Virus record (IMG/VR): IMGVR_UViG_2740892369_000044
DNA length: 38,716 bases
Strand: one strand, 5' to 3'
DNA from: a virus
Taxonomy: Duplodnaviria; Heunggongvirae; Uroviricota; Caudoviricetes
The notes below the pieces were generated by a model. The model had not been told where the DNA came from. It did no database searches and was given only the letters and a program-made list of their open reading frames with translations. Made by a program: the position numbers and the translations under genes. Shown piece by piece: positions 3,266 to 32,297 of this stretch (the stretch's first letter is position 1; each line of letters begins with the position of its first letter).

Positions 3266-4147
3266 TTACATAGATGTTTCGTTTAATTCTTCCCGACGAA
3301 CGCTGTAAACGTCGGTGGCTTTTGCCAGCAGTTCGTCATCATCTGAAAGTTTTTGTGCAATGTATTTGTAAGCCTTATCCAGTTCGGAGACAGTGCTGTA
3401 ATTCATCGCTGCGCTGGTAAAGGCCATCAGCATTTCTTCTGGATCACGGCTATCCGCTTTACGAGTTTGCTCATCAGGCTTTTTCACTGGTTTAGCGTTG
3501 ATCAGACTGTTCATTCCCGCAGCAGTAGTTGTTTGCGGAGTAATGTCTCGCTCAACGCGCGGTGCCGTTTCCTGTAATTCGTCAGGGGTGTAAACACCGA
3601 GAAGCACATCAGGAGCGTGCAGGCGAGCCCATCGTTTCGTGCAAAGATAGGCAAGCTGCTGGCGCGGATCCTGTTCCCACAATGGAGAGTTACGCACTCC
3701 GGCTTGCGCCATACTGATGGTAAGCTCACGGGGTTCTGCTTCTCCTTTAAGAACTGCTGACACAGTTACCGTCAGATTCGGTGATTTATCTGTTTTGCCG
3801 TTAACATTCGACCAGTCACCGCTCCAGCGATAATTCAGGCGTGTCGCCAGCAGGCTGGAAGAGGATACGACCGCGTTTACCAACTGTGCTTCGTAGCCTA
3901 ACGTTCCGTTTACCACATGCGTTTTCTGCGCCACGGCGAAAGGGTTCATTCCCCACTGTGCCGCCTGCATGGTCACCGCCAGACAATCGGCAGGTTTGCC
4001 TTCAAGATGTTTCGGTACAGTCGCTTTGCTTTGTGACATCAACTCCGCGAAACGCACCAGTTGATTCATGCCCTCCGGGCTGAAGATTGCCGCAGCAGTA
4101 CCTACAGTTGCACCTGGTTGTGATGTGATTGCGATATCATTGCTCAT
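3266..4147 (-). CDS. Red-beta/RecT-superfamily single-strand annealing protein
   Basis: 293 aa; WGMNPF and DPRQQLAYLCTKRWARLHAPDVLLGVYTPDE resemble the lambda Bet segments YGLNPW and HPKRMLRHKAMIQCARLAFGFAGIYDKDE; stop overlaps the upstream exonuclease gene. Confidence 0.75.
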   Translation of the reverse strand: MSNDIAITSQPGATVGTAAAIFSPEGMNQLVRFAELMSQSKATVPKHLEGKPADCLAVTMQAAQWGMNPFAVAQKTHVVNGTLGYEAQLVNAVVSSSSLLATRLNYRWSGDWSNVNGKTDKSPNLTVTVSAVLKGEAEPRELTISMAQAGVRNSPLWEQDPRQQLAYLCTKRWARLHAPDVLLGVYTPDELQETAPRVERDITPQTTTAAGMNSLINAKPVKKPDEQTRKADSRDPEEMLMAFTSAAMNYSTVSELDKAYKYIAQKLSDDDELLAKATDVYSVRREELNETSM

Positions 4148-4965
4148 ACGTACATATCCTGTTTACGTGCCCAGTCAGGGCGTTTAATAATTTCCACTCC
4201 GCCCCACTCATCGTTGATGCGGCATTCGTGATAGGTATTCAGATCCCGGCGGAACAGAGCGTGCCCGGCATCGACATCCTGCGCATCCAGCTCGAACACG
4301 CGTACCGGATACCGACCACAATCAATGCTTTCGCTCACGGCAAGAAAGAAAAAACCATGCGGCTGACCAGTAACCCTCATTGCTCCTTCGCGGTACATTG
4401 CGTCCTGCACGTGGTAGCGGAATTCCTCGATGTGGCGTGCAAAACGGTCCATATCTGCAACCTTTTTCACGTCGACGATCACGTTGTGCTCGTTCAGCCA
4501 TTTGTCTGGACGAATTCGGCACAACTCACCCGTCTCTTCATCGTTCCAGTACATTGACGCTTCGCAGTAACCAGGTGCTTCCAGCATCCAGCGTGCCGCC
4601 GGGTGAGCCATTGCGCTATCACGCATCAGCTCCAGTTTCCGCCACTGCTCGGCATCAAGTACCGTAATCCCCATATCCGCTACATCACGAAGAAATGCTT
4701 CTTCGTCAGCTTTACCTTGTTTCGTCCGACGATCGAATTTCGGTGAAACAATGAAGCGTTTGTCGAACTCTCCAGGCTCCAGAAGCAGACAGTGCAATGC
4801 GGTTCCCATATCCAGTGCAGACTTTTTCTCTTCGTCTTCTGGTGCTGCCTGAACCCATTTAAGAAGCGCCGGATTCTTGGCAACCATGTCCAGTTGCGAC
4901 TTACTCACGCCGTCACCGGCGTGGTAGTCTTCGTTGCTGATGTCGAAATAAATTCCCGGTTTCAT
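4144..4965 (-). CDS. PD-(D/E)XK exonuclease (RecE/exodeoxyribonuclease VIII-like), partner of the annealing protein
   Basis: 273 aa; D...VDVKK nuclease motif; translationally coupled to the downstream annealing protein gene. Confidence 0.7.
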   Translation of the reverse strand: MKPGIYFDISNEDYHAGDGVSKSQLDMVAKNPALLKWVQAAPEDEEKKSALDMGTALHCLLLEPGEFDKRFIVSPKFDRRTKQGKADEEAFLRDVADMGITVLDAEQWRKLELMRDSAMAHPAARWMLEAPGYCEASMYWNDEETGELCRIRPDKWLNEHNVIVDVKKVADMDRFARHIEEFRYHVQDAMYREGAMRVTGQPHGFFFLAVSESIDCGRYPVRVFELDAQDVDAGHALFRRDLNTYHECRINDEWGGVEIIKRPDWARKQDMYV

Positions 4966-5261
4966 GCCGCGTCCCTCTGTCCATCAAGCTGATCCGCCAG
5001 ATCCCAGCGGGCGATAATTGCCATTGCCTCGCGCCGGTAGGCATCCATAAGTTCTTCGAACTCAGGGCTGTCTTTAGCTGCCTCCAGCACTTCCTGGCGA
5101 ACTCCTTTGCCTGTTACAGCGTCAAAAGTTGAGGCCAGTTGATGAAGCCGGATGCTCTCGATCAGTTCAACTTGTCGGTCATATAACTGTTCTGACAGGC
5201 GGTAGTCCTTGTCGAATGCCAGCATGATTTTTTGAAGATTTTTCTGCTGATTAACGTTCAT
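4962..5261 (-). CDS. Hypothetical early-left protein (about 99 aa from the internal ATG, MNVNQQ...)
   Basis: Track ORF 4962..5276; ATG with better context at Met6; acidic helical protein, no motif recognised. Confidence 0.45.
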   Translation of the reverse strand: MNVNQQKNLQKIMLAFDKDYRLSEQLYDRQVELIESIRLHQLASTFDAVTGKGVRQEVLEAAKDSPEFEELMDAYRREAMAIIARWDLADQLDGQRDAA

Positions 5262-5416
5262 TATCAGCCCTCCCATATCTCGTTATCGTTGGCTACATCG
5301 CGAGCTTCTTTGCTGACGAAAGCCCACTTAATGCCTTCCTGTAAGGTGCGGAACTTCCAGCTCATGAATCCGCATGCAGTAACGCAGTACCAACCGTTGA
5401 TGATTTTCCACTGCAT
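5252..5416 (-). CDS. Small ORF of about 53 aa (MQWKIINGWYCVTACGFMSWKFRTLQEGIKW...), first gene downstream of the OL-like operators
   Basis: Hand-translated, below the ORF-track size cut-off; in the position of the first PL-transcribed gene; coordinates +/-3. Confidence 0.2.
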
Positions 5417-5435
5417 AACTTGTTACCTCGGTCTG

Positions 5436-5512
5436 TTACCGTTGAGGTAATAATTATGCGTATCTGGTTTGGTGTCAATAGATATGAGTTAAAAAAATTA
5501 CCCGTTAGGTAA
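5436..5512. promoter_or_regulatory. OL-like operator region: two copies of the TTACC-N5-GGTAA inverted repeat (about 5436-5450 and 5498-5512)
   Basis: TTACCGTTGAGGTAA and TTACCCGTTAGGTAA read directly, upstream of the leftward early operon and downstream of the repressor terminator. Confidence 0.6.
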
Positions 5513-5522
5513 TCGAATAGGC

Positions 5523-5548
5523 AATAAAAAAGCCGCCATAAGGCGGCT
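5523..5548 (-). terminator. Rho-independent terminator downstream of the repressor gene
   Basis: Stem AGCCGCC / GGCGGCT with loop ATAA; A-tract on the plus strand gives a U-tract after the stem on the minus strand. Confidence 0.7.
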
Positions 5549-5569
5549 TACTTACTGAAAAATATGATT

Positions 5570-6154
5570 TTATTGTTTGTTTTTTTCGTTCTGGTTGATG
5601 ACAAATTCAATGTAACTTTCGATCTTTGCCTTCTCTGTTTCAGGTAACAATGCGTAGCGCGAGCGGTCATAGTTGATAGTTGCAGGGTCATGCGGATGAA
5701 TCAGTAGTTCATATCCGTGACGCCCGAATGCAGATGCAACATTCTCCAGGGTGGAAATGGAAACGCTGACCTCATTGTTTAACAGGCGGCTTATTGTCAC
5801 CTGGGCGACGCCGGATGCGCGGTGAAGTTTTCCCTGAGTTGAAAGGTCGCGGCTTTCACTCATCCAGCGTTCCAGGTTGTGAGCTGCCAGCTGACCAATG
5901 TCGCTTGGGCCGACAGGCTGAAAACCTTCCTGAGAAAGCGAGCGATCGATATCAAGCCAGTTACGGGGTTTATTGGCGGCAGCTTCAATTTTTCGTGCAA
6001 CCTGGTCGCCGATAACCTTCTTGCCAAGAGCCCAGCGGTTTACCAGATTTGCCTGAGTTCCAAGTTTTTCAGCCATCCGCGTCTGAACACCATTGAATTC
6101 ACGGTCGATCAAGTCGTTGAGATTTTGCCTGCGGACGTCCTGGATACTTTTCAT
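5570..6154 (-). CDS. CI-like prophage repressor with two XRE-type HTH domains and no S24 peptidase domain
   Basis: 194 aa; HTH-like segments near residues 25-60 (QTRMAEKLGTQANLVNRWALGKK) and 115-150 (VAQVTISRLLNNEVSVSISTLENVASAF); divergent from the Cro-like gene with operators between. Confidence 0.7.
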   Translation of the reverse strand: MKSIQDVRRQNLNDLIDREFNGVQTRMAEKLGTQANLVNRWALGKKVIGDQVARKIEAAANKPRNWLDIDRSLSQEGFQPVGPSDIGQLAAHNLERWMSESRDLSTQGKLHRASGVAQVTISRLLNNEVSVSISTLENVASAFGRHGYELLIHPHDPATINYDRSRYALLPETEKAKIESYIEFVINQNEKNKQ

Positions 6155-6209
6155 TTTCTGGAAAATCGCCTCATATCTGAATCAGAAGATGATTCAATTT
6201 AAAGCAATA

Positions 6210-6272
6210 TTACCCAACAGGTAAATGCACCTCATGGGTAACTATCCTTGATTTTTGTTACCTTATAGGTGA
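6210..6272. promoter_or_regulatory. OR-like operator cluster: three tandem TTACC-N5-GGTAA-type sites (about 6210-6224, 6227-6241, 6258-6272) between the divergent repressor and Cro-like genes
   Basis: TTACCCAACAGGTAA, GCACCTCATGGGTAA and TTACCTTATAGGTGA read directly in the 154-bp intergenic region. Confidence 0.7.
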
Positions 6273-6308
6273 ATATTTATTATCTGAAATAAATATCAGG
6301 CAATAGCT

Positions 6309-6539
6309 ATGAGCGATAACGGACATTTCGATTTCAAAAAGCACTGGCTTGCACTTACTCCGGATGAGCGTGAAGCCTTCGCACAGGAAGCCGGAACGAC
6401 GAGTCACTATATCCAGACTCACTTAACAGGTAAGCGCAAAATGCCAGGTAAGGTATTGATGAATGGGCTTTTTAAAGCCTGTAAATCAAGACAATGGTTG
6501 CGCTCAAAAGCAGAACTGGCATACTTCTTCTACTCATGA
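6309..6539 (+). CDS. Cro-like small HTH regulator
   Basis: 76 aa; first rightward gene after the operator cluster; HTH-like segment EREAFAQEAGTTSHYIQTHLTGKR. Confidence 0.55.
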   Translation: MSDNGHFDFKKHWLALTPDEREAFAQEAGTTSHYIQTHLTGKRKMPGKVLMNGLFKACKSRQWLRSKAELAYFFYS

Positions 6540-6560
6540 TATCCAGCCACAACCCTCTGT

Positions 6561-6585
6561 AGACCGCCACCCGGCGGTCTTTTCA
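6561..6585 (+). terminator. Rho-independent terminator after the Cro-like gene (tR1-like position)
   Basis: Stem AGACCGCC / GGCGGTCT with loop ACCC, followed by TTT. Confidence 0.6.
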
Positions 6586-6594
6586 TATCTATTC

Positions 6595-6609
6595 GTACCT
6601 CAAAGGTAA
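6595..6609. promoter_or_regulatory. Additional operator-type site GTACC-TCAAA-GGTAA just downstream of the tR1-like terminator
   Basis: Read directly; same half-site geometry as the OR/OL copies. Confidence 0.4.
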
Positions 6610-6689
6610 TAAAAAACCAAATCTGGTTGATCTTTTTTTTGTGTCAGCACAAAATGACCGTAATCCCAATACTAATAACAGGGCTTACC

Positions 6690-6890
6690 ATGGAAATCAT
6701 TACACGTATTGATGCCGCAAAGCGCGGACTTAAACGCTACTACACCGGAAAACCATGTAAGCATGGACATGACAGTGAACGCTGGGTTTACAACGGACAC
6801 TGTGTTGAGTGCACCATGGAATCAAACCGTCGCATCAGGGCAGAGATTAAGCAGATCATGATTAATTCCTCCCCACAACACTCAAGCTGA
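6690..6890 (+). CDS. Small zinc-ribbon protein in the cII-like position (about 66 aa)
   Basis: Internal ATG of track ORF 6627..6890; Cys/His cluster CKHGH...CVEC; function not inferable from motif. Confidence 0.4.
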   Translation: MEIITRIDAAKRGLKRYYTGKPCKHGHDSERWVYNGHCVECTMESNRRIRAEIKQIMINSSPQHSS

Positions 6891-6905
6891 TAGCGGAGAT
6901 TAATC

Positions 6906-7721
6906 ATGAGCAGACATGCAACAGATTGGGCCTGGGAGACAGATCCAGGTAGCTCATCATTAAAGCTCATACTGCTCTCGATGGCTGACAGAGCCGATGA
7001 ATATAACCTCTGCTACCCCAGCATAGAACGCCTCGTTAAAGACACTTGCCTGAATAAAAAAACCGTGCAGGCCGGGCTTATATCGCTCATGAAAATGGGG
7101 CTTATTTCAGATACCGGAGAGAGAAAGGGAGCGACGAAAAGAGTGCGGGTTTTCTCTCTTAATATAACCAAAAACGGGAACATTAAAGGCAACCGGGAAG
7201 GGGGTAATGAACCCGAAAACGGTAATGTTACCGAAAACGGGAATATACCCAAAAACGGGATGTTGAATGATCCCAAAAACGGGATGTTGAATGATCCCAA
7301 AAACGGGATCCAGAACCAGTCATATAACCAGTCATTTAACCAAGAGAGGGAGAGCAGGACAAAAAGCGGGGATTCTGTGCCTCATGACCCCGGCGCAAAC
7401 AACGCCGTGATGAATAACTTTGTTCCTCCTGGTGGGCCAGGGCAATTAGGCAAATTTGTCATGCATGAACAATGGCAACCATCAGATGACTTTCTTCGGA
7501 AAAGCTCATTGCAGGGGATCTACCTGGACAGTCTGCCAACGGCACAGGAACTTGCAGAGTTCAGAATTTACTGGATGGCTGAGGGTAAGGCATACCATCA
7601 GGCGCAGTGGGAGCAGAAGCTGGCAAGGCGGCTGCAGATTAGCAGACAGAAGCAATCAACATTACCTGATAACAACGTTCCGCACTGGAACAGCCCTGAA
7701 GCATGGGAGGATTTCTTGTGA
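6906..7721 (+). CDS. Replication initiator, lambda O-like (N-terminal HTH DNA-binding domain, repeat-encoded linker, C-terminal domain)
   Basis: 271 aa; N-terminal DWAWE...KLILLSMADRADE...CYPSIERLVKDT pattern of phage replication initiators; internal DNA repeats encode KNG/ENG peptide repeats; stop overlaps the P-like gene start. Confidence 0.75.
   Translation: MSRHATDWAWETDPGSSSLKLILLSMADRADEYNLCYPSIERLVKDTCLNKKTVQAGLISLMKMGLISDTGERKGATKRVRVFSLNITKNGNIKGNREGGNEPENGNVTENGNIPKNGMLNDPKNGMLNDPKNGIQNQSYNQSFNQERESRTKSGDSVPHDPGANNAVMNNFVPPGGPGQLGKFVMHEQWQPSDDFLRKSSLQGIYLDSLPTAQELAEFRIYWMAEGKAYHQAQWEQKLARRLQISRQKQSTLPDNNVPHWNSPEAWEDFL
7168..7310. repeat. Iteron-like direct repeats inside the O-like gene; candidate replication origin
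   Basis: At least six copies of CC(N)AAAACGG(G/T)A within about 140 bp, including two perfect 24-bp copies CCCAAAAACGGGATGTTGAATGAT; followed by an AT-rich stretch with CAGTCAT(A)T(A)AACCA repeated twice. Confidence 0.6.
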
Positions 7722-8541: not shown

Positions 8542-8618
8542 TTACCTGGTGGGTAATAAAATATACTAAAATCTATTGATTTCGTGTCTTATGTGGTTTT
8601 TAATTACCTCAGGGGTAA
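8542..8618. promoter_or_regulatory. Promoter region with two TTACC-N5-GGTAA sites (about 8542-8556 and 8604-8618) flanking a TTATGTGGTT box (about 8589-8598)
   Basis: TTACCTGGTGGGTAA and TTACCTCAGGGGTAA read directly; the second site abuts the ATG at 8622. Confidence 0.55.
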
Positions 8619-11764: not shown

Positions 11765-11797
11765 TTACCACAACGGTAACTATTACCACGGTGGTTA
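11765..11797. promoter_or_regulatory. Two TTACC-N5-GGT(A/T)A sites (about 11765-11779 and 11783-11797) abutting the terminase small-subunit start codon
   Basis: TTACCACAACGGTAA and TTACCACGGTGGTTA read directly. Confidence 0.5.
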
Positions 11798-12393: not shown

Positions 12394-13865
12394 CAGATAC
12401 AGCGTTATCTCCTGAAGAGCAGTTAATCGAGGATATTGCAGGGTTCACTCACGATCCGCTTGGCTATGCCCTCTATGCGTTCCCGTGGGGGGAAGAAGGG
12501 ACTGAACTGGCACATGCTACCGGCCCACGTCAGTGGCAGGCTGATGCGTTCCGAGAGATACGTGATCACCTGCAGAATCCAGCGACGCGCTATCAGCCGC
12601 TTATGCTGGCACTCGCTTCTGGTCACGGTATTGGTAAATCCGCATTCATCTCAATGCTGATCAACTGGGGCATGTCCACTTGCGAGGATTGTAAGGTCGT
12701 GGTGACCGCCAACACCGACAACCAGCTACGAACGAAGACCTGGCCGGAAATTATCAAGTGGTCGAACCTTGCTATCACGAAAGACTGGTTTACCTGTACC
12801 GCTACCGCGATGTACAGCAATGACCTAGGGCACGACAAGCGGTGGCGGGCTGACGCAATACCCTGGTCTGAGCACAACACCGAGGCATTCGCCGGACTAC
12901 ACAACGAGCGCAAACGCATCATCGTGGTGTTTGATGAAGCGTCGAACATTGCGGATCTGGTGTGGGAAGTTGCCGAGGGTGCGCTTACGGACGAAGACAC
13001 TGAGATTATTTGGGTGGCGTTCGGAAACCCTACACGTAACACCGGGCGTTTTCGCGAATGTTTCCGCAAATATAAACACCGCTGGAAAACTGCGCAGATT
13101 GACAGCCGGACGGTGGAAGGCACTAACAAACAGCAGTTGCAGAAATGGGTTGATGACTACGGGGAAGACAGCGACTTCGTTAAAATCCGTGTGCGCGGCA
13201 TATTCCCGGATGCATCTGAATTGCAGTTTATCCCTACCGGACTTACTGACGAGGCAATGAAACGGGTGGTCACCGCTGCGCAGGTTGCATATGCTCCGGT
13301 GATAATCGGCGTTGACCCGGCATACTCAGGCGTTGATGACGCTGTGATATACCTGCGGCAGGGGCTGCACAGTAAGGTGCTGTGGACTGGCAACAAGACT
13401 ACCGACGATCTGATTATGGCGAAGCGTATCGCTGACTTTGAAGACCAGTATCAGGCTGACGCGGTGTTCATCGACTTCGGTTACGGAACCGGTTTGAAGT
13501 CAATCGGTGACGGCTGGGGTCGTACATGGCAACTTGTTCCGTTCGGTGGCGCGTCTACTGACCCGCAGATGCTCAACAAGCGTGGGGAGATGTTCAACTC
13601 ATGCAAGACATGGCTGAGGCTCGGCGGCATGCTGGATGACCAGGAAACTGCAGACGACCTGTCGGCGGCAGAGTACAAAGTTCGTGTGGACGGTAAAATC
13701 GTTATCGAACCGAAGGAAGATATCAAAGAGCGGCTTGGGCGTTCGCCTGGTAAAGGCGATGCGCTACTGCTGACGTTTGCTTTCCCGGTGTCAAAGCGCC
13801 TGCGACTTCCCGGGCAGCAGAACCAGCAAGGCAAGGCGCTTACCGAGTACGATCCATATGCTTAG
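12390..13865 (+). CDS. Terminase large subunit
   Basis: 491 aa; Walker-A-like ASGHGIGKS, DEASNI (Walker B-like), C-terminal nuclease-like region; position between small terminase and portal. Confidence 0.85.
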   Translation: MTDTALSPEEQLIEDIAGFTHDPLGYALYAFPWGEEGTELAHATGPRQWQADAFREIRDHLQNPATRYQPLMLALASGHGIGKSAFISMLINWGMSTCEDCKVVVTANTDNQLRTKTWPEIIKWSNLAITKDWFTCTATAMYSNDLGHDKRWRADAIPWSEHNTEAFAGLHNERKRIIVVFDEASNIADLVWEVAEGALTDEDTEIIWVAFGNPTRNTGRFRECFRKYKHRWKTAQIDSRTVEGTNKQQLQKWVDDYGEDSDFVKIRVRGIFPDASELQFIPTGLTDEAMKRVVTAAQVAYAPVIIGVDPAYSGVDDAVIYLRQGLHSKVLWTGNKTTDDLIMAKRIADFEDQYQADAVFIDFGYGTGLKSIGDGWGRTWQLVPFGGASTDPQMLNKRGEMFNSCKTWLRLGGMLDDQETADDLSAAEYKVRVDGKIVIEPKEDIKERLGRSPGKGDALLLTFAFPVSKRLRLPGQQNQQGKALTEYDPYA

Positions 13866-14680
13866 TCTTTATTTTTATCCTCGAAACCTGATAATCCAGA
13901 TAGAACACCAAAGTTATTAAAAACGTTTGGCTTACCAGATTTTAATCCGGATAAGTTGTGTTGCTCCAAAAAGTTACTAATTGTTTGGCCGTTGCCAAGT
14001 GCAAGGCTTTTTATTTGAGATTTTTCAGGGTATTTGAGTTTGTATTCGTCGAAATCATTTTGGAGGGTCTTATATGCCTCATTCATTCTTCCAAGAGTTT
14101 CCGATATCTCTTTTAATGAATGATTTAGAGCTGCTAACTGAGCACTGGCGGATCTCAATTCGTCATCTTTAGCTTTCAACTCGGCAGTCAATTCACCCAT
14201 ACTATTCTTTGATCGAATAATCTCTTCTTTCATCTCTTGGATGTCTTTTTCCGCGCCAGTCTTAACTTTGTCGTATGTAACATCTTTTTTAGCCAATAAC
14301 CTCTGCAGTCTTGTTTCACGCTGGATTTTTCTTGCCTTCAGGTGATTTTCGATTGAGTCATTATTATCAAGAGGCTTTGCTTGCCATACGTTAATGATAT
14401 TGTTTACCCATGGTAATAGGCAGCAGATAGCAATTACAGATAGGCATGGATAAAACATAACAGTTTTCCATGTGCTGTTATCTGAGATATATGAAATTTT
14501 ATCTATTATGTTTGATTTGCTAAAAAATAGATAAAGAATTGATTTCCAGTTGAAGGCGCACCAGGACATAACAAAAGCACCAAGCACAGGGTTTTTGGCT
14601 CTATTCACGGCAGTATTGGCAGTAGATAAAAACAGCTCTTTAAACGATTCAAACATGCTAATTACCTTGAAGTTTTTCAT
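13862..14680 (-). CDS. Accessory (moron) protein: two predicted TM helices at the N-terminus followed by a long coiled coil; function unknown
   Basis: 272 aa from internal ATG (MKNFKV...) of track ORF 13862..14752; strongly AT-rich relative to neighbours; antisense to the late operon; stop overlaps the terminase large stop by 3 nt. Confidence 0.6.
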   Translation of the reverse strand: MKNFKVISMFESFKELFLSTANTAVNRAKNPVLGAFVMSWCAFNWKSILYLFFSKSNIIDKISYISDNSTWKTVMFYPCLSVIAICCLLPWVNNIINVWQAKPLDNNDSIENHLKARKIQRETRLQRLLAKKDVTYDKVKTGAEKDIQEMKEEIIRSKNSMGELTAELKAKDDELRSASAQLAALNHSLKEISETLGRMNEAYKTLQNDFDEYKLKYPEKSQIKSLALGNGQTISNFLEQHNLSGLKSGKPNVFNNFGVLSGLSGFEDKNKD

Positions 14681-14684
14681 GATT

Positions 14685-14699
14685 ATACCTTTAAGGTAA
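14685..14699. promoter_or_regulatory. TTACC-TTAAA-GGTAT site (minus-strand sense) overlapping the ribosome-binding site of the moron gene
   Basis: Read directly; the 24 nt ending at the ATG are near-identical to those in front of the VRR-NUC gene at 8601-8624. Confidence 0.45.
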
Positions 14700-14715
14700 T
14701 TTGCGGTCATCAAGC

Positions 14716-14739
14716 AAAAAAATGCCCGGCGAACCGGGC
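14716..14739 (-). terminator. Rho-independent terminator between the tRNA and the moron gene
   Basis: Stem GCCCGG / CCGGGC with loop CGAA; A7 on the plus strand gives a U-tract on the minus strand. Confidence 0.6.
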
Positions 14740-14771
14740 GAACTGGAAGCAATGAGTTATGCCTTCCGTGG

Positions 14772-14902: not shown

Positions 14903-14979
14903 TGGCGTGGCATGCAGGATTCGAACCTGCGACCAACCGCTTAGAAGGCGGTTGCTCTGTCCAGCTGAGCTAATGCCAC
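14903..14979 (-). tRNA. tRNA-Arg, anticodon UCU, with encoded CCA
   Basis: Hand-folded cloverleaf: acceptor GTGGCAT/ATGCCAC, D-stem GCTC/GAGC, anticodon stem ACCGC/GCGGT with loop CTTCTAA, T-arm GCAGG-TTCGAAT-CCTGC; body resembles argU-type tRNAs but the acceptor stem differs. Confidence 0.85.
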
Positions 14980-15301: not shown

Positions 15302-15368
15302 TTACCTGAAAGGTAATAATTTGTGCGTTAAATGTCAACTATCTACGATAAATAAATCATATGTGGTT
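15302..15368 (+). promoter_or_regulatory. Late-promoter-like cassette upstream of the portal operon: TTACCTGAAAGGTAA site (about 15302-15316) and CATATGTGGTT box (about 15358-15368)
   Basis: Both elements read directly; first ATG at 15407. Confidence 0.55.
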
Positions 15369-19789: not shown

Positions 19790-20134
19790 GTGATATCGAT
19801 GTCAGGTGAGAAACCAAGATACCGCGTTCTGCGCCTCTCTCATATCCATAACACTCTGTGGCCGGAGGGGGCAGAAATCGAATACGAAGGTGAGCCTGGT
19901 AGCGCACTGGAACCTGTTAACGATGCAGCCAGACAGGCAAAAGCAAAAGTTGCAGGAAAGGTGTCAATGGCAGCAACCAGCACCAAAATCATCAACGATG
20001 TGTCAGATGATGGTGAACTGGATAAGCTCCGTGAAGAGTACGAATTGCTCTTTAACGAGAAGCCACACCATAACGCCAAAGCTGAAACGCTCCGCGAGAA
20101 GATCGCAGATAAGCGTAAAGAACTGGGCGTGTAA
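19790..20134 (+). CDS. Hypothetical virion-associated protein
   Basis: 114-aa coupled ORF. Confidence 0.45.
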   Translation: MISMSGEKPRYRVLRLSHIHNTLWPEGAEIEYEGEPGSALEPVNDAARQAKAKVAGKVSMAATSTKIINDVSDDGELDKLREEYELLFNEKPHHNAKAETLREKIADKRKELGV

Positions 20135-31393: not shown

Positions 31394-31568
31394 TGTGTTT
31401 TTAATTATTTTGAGTGTGATAATTTCTGGTGGATTGTTATTTATTGACCGCTACAAATATTTTCTTAACCCTCAGACTCAAGCTATTTGCTGGTTCATCT
31501 TTGTTGTGCAGGGAGTAGTTCTTGTTGCAAGCCTTATTGAGGGGAGGCCTCTTATTTTTACTGGGTAA
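31394..31568 (+). CDS. Small two-TM membrane protein (about 58 aa), not in the ORF track
   Basis: Hand-translated GTG-initiated ORF with AAGGAAG ribosome-binding site overlapping the upstream stop; hydrophobic sequence FLIILSVIISGGLLF...WFIFVVQGVVLVASLI. Confidence 0.3.
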
Positions 31569-31580
31569 ATAGGTGACTAC

Positions 31581-31877
31581 ATGCAAGCTATAGGATTCAT
31601 TGTTTATATCGTCGTTGGTCTTTTTCAGTTGGCAGCAATTATGGCTGGGCTTGAATCATGGTGGGGATTGCACTGGATAATTGCAGCCCCCATTGCTTTC
31701 ATCGTGAGCTATATTCCATTTGTTGGAGCGATTGTTGGTATGGTTGGCGCTGTGGATGTATGGCGGTGGGAGTGGTGGCAGGCTGGCCTTCTCTTCTTTG
31801 GTGGGATCATCTTTGCTATTGTCTGCGGTGGAATGTCATCATTTTTCGAATGGCTATCATTCAGAAAAGGGACGTGA
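31581..31877 (+). CDS. Small multi-TM membrane protein
   Basis: 98 aa; three or four hydrophobic helices, Trp-rich. Confidence 0.55.
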   Translation: MQAIGFIVYIVVGLFQLAAIMAGLESWWGLHWIIAAPIAFIVSYIPFVGAIVGMVGAVDVWRWEWWQAGLLFFGGIIFAIVCGGMSSFFEWLSFRKGT

Positions 31878-31885
31878 CATGTCAC

Positions 31886-31910
31886 AGGCCGCTTTCGCGG
31901 CCTTTTCTTT
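31886..31910 (+). terminator. Rho-independent terminator
   Basis: Stem AGGCCGC / GCGGCCT with loop TTTC, followed by TTTCTTT. Confidence 0.65.
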
Positions 31911-32166
31911 ATGTGGTTTGTTTTCGTAATTGTTCGGCACAATAGTCGAGATGTGTTTGCAGATCCTGCATAGACATCTGTGAGCTGGTGACGTAGTTAA
32001 TCAGTGCAGTCAGTTCGGCAAGTGGGCCATCGACATTAAATCCATCCTTATCGAGATCCCGGAGTAATTTCATCAAGTGCGATCCCTCCACCAGTGACCT
32101 GACGCCTCCCGGCGTGTGAATCCTTTCGGTAAATCCGTCTTCCAGTGGATAGTGATACTGCTGCAT
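31909..32166 (-). CDS. Small SOS-controlled protein (about 85 aa); candidate antirepressor or other SOS effector
   Basis: ATG at 32166 with GGAGAAG ribosome-binding site (track ORF starts at TTG 32184); canonical LexA box about 20 bp upstream; antisense to the late operon. Confidence 0.55.
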   Translation of the reverse strand: MQQYHYPLEDGFTERIHTPGGVRSLVEGSHLMKLLRDLDKDGFNVDGPLAELTALINYVTSSQMSMQDLQTHLDYCAEQLRKQTT

Positions 32167-32185: not shown

Positions 32186-32205
32186 AACTGTATAAATATA
32201 CAGTA
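32186..32205. promoter_or_regulatory. LexA (SOS) box AACTGTATAAATATACAGTA
   Basis: 18 of 20 matches to the consensus TACTGTATATATATACAGTA, with correct CTGT-N8-ACAG spacing and AT-rich centre; position anchored to ORF-track codons. Confidence 0.75.
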
Positions 32206-32242: not shown

Positions 32243-32297
32243 TCACCTGAAAGGTAATATCTGTTCGTATTTATGGGTTATATATCCATATGTGGTT
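32243..32297 (+). promoter_or_regulatory. Late-promoter-like cassette upstream of the tailspike: TCACCTGAAAGGTAA (about 32243-32257) and CATATGTGGTT (about 32287-32297)
   Basis: Read directly; first ATG at 32362. Confidence 0.55.

Follow-up and report, generated by a model that had tools for sequence, protein, structure and literature searches.

Rep: gene, relatives and domain layout

The DNA analyzed here is a stretch of 38,716 nucleotides from a tailed phage (IMG/VR record IMGVR_UViG_2740892369_000044), referred to at its full length as the window, and the gene under study is rep, which lies on the minus strand and encodes an immunity repressor of 194 amino acids (aa). An earlier, sequence-only reading had described this protein as an immunity repressor built from two helix-turn-helix (HTH) segments. 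The gene and the modules assigned to its product are listed below, from the N-terminus to the C-terminus of the protein.

5570..6154, minus strand: rep, 194-aa immunity repressor, ortholog of SPC32H Rep (phmmer, 5d50_A, E=4e-42), the same protein as phiV10 gp40 and ZX5 ORF21
5939..6154, minus strand: Rep residues 1-72, predicted N-terminal HTH DNA-binding domain (53% identity to the N-terminal domain of SPC32H Rep; predicted helices)
5903..5938, minus strand: Rep residues 73-84, flexible linker (predicted local distance difference test, pLDDT, <50 at 73-83; length and sequence vary across the family alignment)
5696..5902, minus strand: Rep residues 85-153, second HTH-like (XRE-fold) domain (HTH_3 and HTH_26 matches; five predicted helices; most likely the middle dimerization domain, MDD, of PMC9986798)
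5573..5695, minus strand: Rep residues 154-194, C-terminal module (aligns with 5d50 and 5d4z to the C-terminus; 46% identity to the SPC32H CAD/TetDloop)

The frame of 194 aa, taken from the open reading frame (ORF) list, opens with ATG, and the segment around it (window 4900-7000) was 97.9% identical to Escherichia phage phiV10, an epsilon15-like podovirus of the genus Uetakevirus, with many relatives alike. By tblastn, Rep was 100% identical to phiV10 gp40, to ORF21 of phage vB_EcoP_ZX5, annotated as 'repressor', and to about 12 further deposited phage proteins. Moreover, 86 homologs of about 194 aa were found in a large protein database, all of them from Enterobacteriaceae and their prophages. 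Because of these 86 homologs and the identical annotated proteins in phiV10, ZX5 and other phages, rep is not a chance ORF. One homolog from NCBI carries a frameshift that runs through the linker into the beginning of the middle domain, after which the frame is regained; this probably reflects a pseudogene, or else a sequencing error, in a prophage on a chromosome.

rep diverges from a cro-like gene and from the genes for replication, which is the classical place of an immunity repressor. In agreement, overexpression of the identical ZX5 ORF21 was reported to bring free phage to zero and to reduce the endolysin and holin transcripts by 99.99% and 99.97%, respectively (PMC9782041), a result that supports the role of immunity repressor proposed from the sequence. 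Judged by its sequence, Rep is the prophage immunity repressor of phiV10-like Uetakevirus and a member of the SPC32H Rep family, the evidence for repression being indirect, as it comes from the identical ZX5 protein. The system as such is already known: the protein is annotated, repression was tested in ZX5, and both the family structure and the antirepression mechanism are published. The uncleavable repressor, the LexA-controlled logic of the antirepressor Ant and the structure were reportedly described by Kim and Ryu (2013, J Virol) and by Kim et al. (2016, PNAS).

Next, the domain content of Rep was analyzed with Pfam, using the whole protein and its segments. Whole Rep matched HTH_3 with an E value of 1.2e-9 over two stretches, and further matches were obtained to HTH_26, to a LacI-type HTH and, weakly, to HTH domains of the YdaS_toxin/DUF739 type at residues 20-61. 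Neither Peptidase_S24 nor any other cleavage or catalytic domain was detected in Rep by Pfam, even at E<=10, and the AG or CG dipeptide of an S24-type cleavage site is absent from its sequence. The two HTH-type segments without an S24 autopeptidase, as first read from the sequence, were thus recovered, although with unequal scores: residues 85-159 alone exceeded the Pfam thresholds (HTH_3, 26.9 bits against 23; HTH_26, 26.3 against 22), whereas residues 1-81 alone remained under them (HTH_3, 15.9 bits against 23; YdaS_toxin, 20.4 against 30). The last 48 residues matched no Pfam family. That such an architecture is unusual had been overstated, as the phiV10 RefSeq/GenBank note on PhiV10p40 already reads 'two helix-turn-helix motifs (PF01381); similar to putative repressor epsilon15p38'.

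An AlphaFold2 model of the Rep monomer, generated from a 31-sequence alignment and with a mean pLDDT of 78.6, placed four helices (4-19, 24-31, 35-43 and 50-59) in an HTH-like bundle in the N-terminal segment, followed by a disordered linker at residues 73-83, a five-helix bundle at residues 85-151, and a C-terminal part of a short and then a long helix at residues 164-193. The HTH-like bundles at 4-59 and 85-151 agreed with the sequence-only reading, which had missed the third, C-terminal module. When the model was compared with the PDB by Foldseek, 5d50 and 5d4z ranked on top (TM 0.78 to 5d4z), and the next ranks were occupied by XRE-type HTH proteins, i.e., NHTF (3vk0), SinR, DdrO and P22 C2. 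Profile searches of the PDB with the separate domains pointed the same way: the N-terminal profile retrieved 5d50 at 1e-35 and then weak XRE, HigA and MBF1 HTH matches (E 0.035-0.7), and the middle-domain profile retrieved 5d4z at 4e-30, NHTF 3vk0 at 9e-4, and then HigA, LacI heads and a Cro. The N-terminal domain is basic, with a net charge of +5 and an isoelectric point (pI) of 10.3. Its predicted third helix, QANLVNRW, is the likely recognition helix, and N36, R40 and W41 within it are invariant family-wide. With the Pfam scores of this segment being sub-threshold, it is the predicted helix pattern and the homology to the SPC32H DNA-binding domain that support an HTH at residues 1-72.

The closest solved relative is the Rep of Salmonella phage SPC32H. 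In a phmmer search of the PDB, the chain 5d50_A, named 'Repressor', aligned with residues 1-190 of the 194, and 5d4z, a fragment covering 92-198, was matched with E=4e-20; 5D50 is the Rep-Ant complex and 5D4Z the C-terminal fragment of Rep, both from SPC32H. The two proteins belong to the same length class (194 and 198 aa), align over their full length with the same three-module layout, and share 43% global identity, which amounts to 53% for residues 1-72, 32% for residues 85-153 and 46% for residues 154-194. The linker of the window protein is 6 residues shorter. SPC32H Rep consists of an N-terminal DNA-binding domain, the MDD, and a C-terminal CAD, a p53-like 'TetDloop' that tetramerizes and binds Ant (PMC9986798). 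It binds DNA as a tetramer, the binding of the dimer being weak; a palindromic site is contacted by a pair of DNA-binding domains that different dimers within the tetramer contribute, i.e., in trans, and the tetrameric Ant binds two Rep dimers, breaking the Rep tetramer (PMC9638917). Because the SPC32H literature assigns the domains in this way, the second HTH-like segment is read as a dimerization domain and not as a second DNA reader; by this comparison, residues 85-153 are most likely the MDD. Likewise, tetramerization and Ant binding are ascribed to residues 154-194 as the homologous module, following PMC9986798, and Y162, L170 and F184 in this module are invariant family-wide.

The antirepressor gene and the operator palindromes

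A tandem-HTH repressor had been expected to need another route of induction, and a candidate for this was found in the window, where a small gene next to the tailspike gene encodes an Ant homolog behind a LexA box.

31909..32166, minus strand: ant, 85-aa antirepressor (89% identical to SPC32H Ant; 5d50_E, E=1.3e-47; phrog_450)
32186..32205, unstranded: LexA box AACTGTATAAATATACAGTA, 20 nucleotides (nt) ahead of the ant start codon, differing from the 20-bp consensus at 2 positions
32243..32257, unstranded: operator-like site TCACCTGAAAGGTAA, between ant and the tailspike gene, at a distance of 37 nt from the LexA box

The chain matched by the ant product, 5d50_E, is named 'Anti-repressor protein', and a GGAG ribosome-binding site precedes the ant ATG. 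The scan of the window with the LexA consensus returned this one site, with 0 chance matches expected, and in SPC32H the LexA box stands at the same distance of 20 nt from ant. The records of SPC32H and SPC32N differ by a single base inside the box (CACTGTATAAACATACAGTA vs CACTTTATAAACATACAGTA), and, according to a 2013 J Virol abstract, this LexA-box mutation in SPC32N reportedly makes Ant expression constitutive. No convincing promoter hexamers were called for ant in the sigma-70 scan. Relatives of the window Ant were encoded on 301 viral contigs, and CTGT-N8-ACAG was present at the position of the LexA box in 77 of the 80 best loci; as the Ant proteins of these 80 are all at least 99% identical, the loci are nearly identical and the count is little independent evidence for conservation, showing rather how frequently the gene occurs. 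phiV10, ZX5 and SPC32H keep the small ant, LexA box included, at the corresponding locus, and the gene is annotated as 'hypothetical protein' in phiV10 (PhiV10p24) and in ZX5 (2089-2346). A review of Salmonella prophages classes the SPC32H-type system with the LexA-controlled antirepressor systems (PMC7380047).

The operator sequence TTACC-N5-GGTAA suggested earlier proved to be real. Allowing at most 1 mismatch, 13 sites were found in the window against 0.68 expected, all of them at operon boundaries, and SPC32H contains 18 sites against 0.52 expected, at syntenic positions. A Serratia prophage with a 54% identical Rep and an E. coli prophage with a 65% identical one contain 7 sites each within 6.6 kb, against 0.1 expected. 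The TTACC half-site is invariant across the Rep family, alongside the invariant N36, R40 and W41; the central N5 is more G+C-rich in the window and A/T-rich in SPC32H. These results suggest that the palindromes are Rep operators. The sites around rep, together with the promoter-like sequences to which their positions refer, are the following.

5436..5450, unstranded: operator TTACCGTTGAGGTAA, abutting the -10 element of the leftward promoter-like site
5450..5478, minus strand: PL-like promoter candidate TTGACA-17-AATTAT (10/12 consensus positions; a consensus match only)
5498..5512, unstranded: operator TTACCCGTTAGGTAA, 62 bp from the 5436 site and just upstream of the -35 element
6210..6224, unstranded: operator TTACCCAACAGGTAA, 56 nt ahead of the rep start codon; equal distance in the related locus L007
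6227..6241, unstranded: degenerate operator GCACCTCATGGGTAA, 2 mismatches; alone within chance
6255..6283, plus strand: PR-like promoter candidate TTGTTA-17-TATTAT for the cro-like gene (9/12 consensus positions; a consensus match only)
6258..6272, unstranded: operator TTACCTTATAGGTGA, overlapping the -35 element and spacer of the rightward promoter-like site
6595..6609, unstranded: operator-like site GTACCTCAAAGGTAA, after the terminator of the cro-like gene

The remaining sites, other than the one near ant, were found further along the window.

8542..8618, unstranded: operator pair, 8542-8556 and 8604-8618, 62 bp apart and upstream of a DUF1064 gene (SPC32H pair 35972/36034)
11765..11797, unstranded: operator pair, 11765-11779 and 11783-11797, preceding the small terminase gene (SPC32H site 12-26)
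14685..14699, unstranded: operator-like site directly upstream of a leftward phrog_4780 gene
15302..15316, unstranded: operator TTACCTGAAAGGTAA, preceding the portal/head operon (SPC32H site 3175)
35512..35526, unstranded: operator-like site between a gtrA-like gene and the lysis cassette (SPC32H site 24782)

When 2 mismatches were allowed, 35 sites were obtained against about 16.5 in shuffles, most of them noise, and among these only 6227-6241 was kept, because its spacing is conserved: the steps around it are 17 and 31 bp in the window and 17 and 30 bp in SPC32H. The geometry of the gap between rep and the cro-like gene is conserved in general, with three sites at steps of about 16-17 and 30-32 bp. 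The spacing of 62 bp, start to start, was also recurrent. Two such pairs occur in the genome of each of three phages that share only 43-65% identity in Rep, namely at 5436-5512 and 8542-8618 in the window, at 33604-33680 and 35972-36048 in SPC32H, and at 699-775 and 3647-3723 in L007. Since these pairs recur, and one of those in the window brackets a strong promoter-like site, we infer that a single Rep tetramer bridges both sites of a 62-bp pair.

The presence of palindromes at nearly every operon boundary, syntenic with SPC32H, points to direct control by Rep of late and accessory operons as well (replication/DUF1064, terminase, portal/head, ant/tailspike and lysis). At the ant locus, the perfect operator site of SPC32H (20013-20027) has the same offset from the LexA box as the operator-like site of the window; because the box is preceded by such a site at a distance of 37 nt in either phage, Rep may co-regulate ant or the divergent tailspike promoter, possibly as a feedback loop in the switch.

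A proposed switch and the alternatives to it

Collectively, these data are best accommodated by a Rep of the SPC32H family that has three modules, sits as a tetramer on palindromes, silences the phage and is released upon the SOS response via Ant, and we consider this very probable. Residues 1-72 would form the HTH that reads the TTACC half-site, residues 85-153 an XRE-like HTH fold recruited for dimerization, and residues 154-194 a strand-helix module that would couple two dimers into a tetramer and offer the docking site for Ant. Each 15-bp TTACC-N5-GGTAA palindrome would be held by a pair of identical N-terminal domains, and, as the tetramer has two such pairs, it would hold two palindromes, which fits the conserved, promoter-bracketing 62-bp pairs. 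In this position, Rep would keep the divergent early promoters silent, and with them probably most of the remaining operons. With a Rep unable to cleave itself, DNA damage would be sensed through the cleavage of LexA and the ensuing derepression of ant; Ant would then bind the C-terminal modules, split the Rep tetramer and so release the DNA. Of these elements, the present analysis showed the homology and domain layout of Rep, the lack of an S24 domain, an ant gene preceded by a LexA box, and operators that are enriched and keep their positions. Repression by the identical protein was shown in ZX5, and the oligomer and Ant mechanism in SPC32H, from where it would be transferred to a Rep 43% identical to that of SPC32H.

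Some observations weigh against this proposal. The identity to the crystallized SPC32H Rep is low, above all the 32% of the middle domain, and this domain retains the XRE-typical Q118 and R123 and passes the HTH_3 threshold of Pfam, so that a residual contact with DNA is possible. The sigma-70 promoter scans gave counts at chance frequency and provide positional hints only. Finally, the 'anti-repressor' tested in the ZX5 study is a different gene, and, because it is of the Bro-N type, that experiment was no test of the small Ant.

A bolder version of the proposal makes Rep the single master silencer on essentially every operon start, at no fewer than nine loci (at least 9), with cross-immunity and cross-induction among related prophages, or else lets the middle XRE-fold domain keep a contact with DNA in a wrapped complex; we regard it as rather unlikely. 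Cross-immunity and cross-induction are possible in so far as prophages of E. coli, Salmonella and Serratia have one invariant half-site in common and Ant is 89% conserved.

Next, the route of induction was weighed. The small Ant could be irrelevant if Rep were inactivated by some other signal or by another antirepressor, of the Bro-N/KilA type as in ZX5, where overexpression of the Bro-N protein ORF4 lowered prophage numbers and rep transcripts (PMC9782041). phiV10 likewise carries a Bro-N protein, and the Ant-binding module of Rep is only 46% identical to that of SPC32H although Ant itself is 89% identical. However, the Bro-N gene is absent from the window, where the equivalent interval holds two small membrane-protein ORFs; the small ant and its LexA box share one locus in phiV10, ZX5, SPC32H and the 77 of 80 viral loci; and the C-terminal Y162, L170 and F184 do not vary in the family. 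With this evidence, a route that bypasses the small Ant is highly unlikely, and Rep is most likely switched off by the SOS-controlled Ant encoded in the window itself, in keeping with the earlier view that a further route of induction was needed.

The suggestion that each HTH of one chain contacts one half-site, a monomer thereby covering the whole operator, was not supported. A perfect inverted repeat with half-sites about 10 bp apart has the geometry expected for two identical heads related by a dyad, and the two HTH segments of Rep are dissimilar: BLASTP between them found no similarity, and the candidate recognition helices are unlike (QANLVNRW vs AQVTISRL). The middle domain is slightly acidic rather than basic (net charge -1, pI 6.4), and it varies in the family, down to 32% identity, whereas the half-site and the helix of the N-terminal domain are invariant. 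In the SPC32H ortholog, moreover, dimerization is assigned to the middle domain, and it is N-terminal domains of different dimers that hold the palindromes (PMC9986798, PMC9638917). What speaks for two reading heads is that both segments give HTH-type matches, that Q118 and R123 are kept, and that hhalign aligned the segments in HTH register with E=0.003, at a probability of only 10%. An internal duplication of the HTH segments was likewise considered and rejected, given the lack of a BLASTP match and the low probability of the hhalign match. We judge it very improbable that the two HTH domains of one chain each read a half-site, and retain the middle domain as the likely dimerization domain. 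The sequence-only reading was therefore confirmed as an observation and partly supported as an interpretation, for a system that was already known.

That Rep is an antitoxin-like or generic XRE regulator and not an immunity repressor is scarcely conceivable, for the weak NCBIfam and PDB matches to the HigA and HipB antitoxins lie far under the cut-offs (TIGR02607, 18.7 bits vs 47.7), and the BP9 record, annotated 'plasmid maintenance system antidote protein VapI', stands against the absence of an adjacent toxin gene (a terminator and a phrog_898 gene on one side, the cro-like gene on the other), the divergent placement of rep, and the repression of lysis genes by the identical ZX5 protein.

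Known systems and neighboring genes

Compared with other known systems, the window is closest to SPC32H, with which it also shares synteny (rep divergent from the cro-like gene and ant adjoining the tailspike gene), the operator sites at matching genome positions, and the LexA box at an equal offset before ant. The protein is identical in phiV10 (gp40) and ZX5 (ORF21), two phages that, unlike the window, additionally carry a Bro-N 'anti-repressor'. Repressors of the lambda CI, P22 C2 and LexA type are similar in their N-terminal lambda-repressor-like HTH, in the palindromic operators at divergent promoters and in the SOS-linked induction, but they have the S24 autopeptidase that is missing here; the SOS signal would reach Rep indirectly, via LexA and Ant. 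Also in contrast with the lambda CI type, the Rep family oligomerizes via an HTH-fold domain and a p53-like tetramerization module (PMC9986798). Rco of the Bacillus plasmid pLS20, whose antirepressor is Rap, resembles Rep in its N-terminal XRE DNA-binding domain, its C-terminal TetDloop and its control by an antirepressor (PMC9986798), but it does not have the middle HTH-fold dimerization domain, and both the element and the signal are others. The Gifsy-1 and Gifsy-3 repressors (Lemire et al. 2011, PMC3121763) and the CI/Tum pair of coliphage 186 (Shearwin et al. 1998) follow the same logic, an uncleavable repressor inactivated by a small LexA-repressed antirepressor (PMC7380047). They nevertheless form separate protein families. 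The SPC32H-type Ant is said, in a 2013 abstract, to be structurally distinct from the antirepressors of Siphoviridae and Myoviridae.

For annotation, the 'hypothetical' gene adjoining the tailspike gene in phiV10-like phages can be named as an SOS-controlled antirepressor, and the second HTH of Rep should not be taken for a further head that binds DNA. Engineering of phiV10 reporter phages and studies of cross-immunity among Uetakevirus prophages could draw on the phased and conserved operator pairs. Beyond the known system, what remains is mildly interesting: the genome-wide operators with conserved phasing, the invariant half-site and the highly conserved Ant, which together suggest cross-immunity and cross-induction.

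On either side of rep, two further features were identified.

5530..5549, minus strand: terminator-like hairpin downstream of rep (hairpin scan; phiV10 annotates a terminator at the equal place)
6309..6539, plus strand: divergent 76-aa gene, candidate Cro-like lytic regulator (phrog_35 'transcriptional repressor', 8.7e-13)

The 76-aa gene is syntenic with SPC32H_042 and phiV10 p41, and from its sequence and place it would act as a Cro-like lytic regulator. The leftward early operon, behind the PL-like candidate, comprises the phrog_898 gene, an exonuclease and RecT. Within 3266-4965 on the minus strand, the RecT-like protein (293 aa) and the exonuclease VIII/DUF3799-like protein (273 aa) are encoded by separate, overlapping ORFs, as in ZX5; the phiV10 record has one RecE-RecT fusion of 1761 bp instead. 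To the right, 6906-7721 on the plus strand encodes a DnaT/primosomal-like replication protein with low-complexity NGN/PKNGMLND repeats at residues ~90-135.

Near ant, the interval 31395-31877 is occupied by two short ORFs with hydrophobic products, 57 aa and 98 aa long, and the longer of them matched phrog_3075 (function unknown). In phiV10 and ZX5, a Bro-N antirepressor-like gene, accompanied in ZX5 by an ash-like gene, lies between the virion genes and ant. A 296-aa ORF at 13862-14752 was considered as a Bro-type antirepressor and rejected, as it had no Pfam match and matched only PHROGs of unknown function.

Two observations concern other parts of the window. A tRNA-Arg gene (anticodon TCT) is located at 14903-14979 on the minus strand, between the terminase and portal regions, and likewise in SPC32H and ZX5. 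Between the tailspike gene and the lysis cassette, 35120-35515 on the minus strand encodes a GtrA-family flippase-like protein (PF04138, E=2e-13); because phiV10 has an O-acetyltransferase gene (oac) at this location, the serotype-conversion module differs between the two phages.

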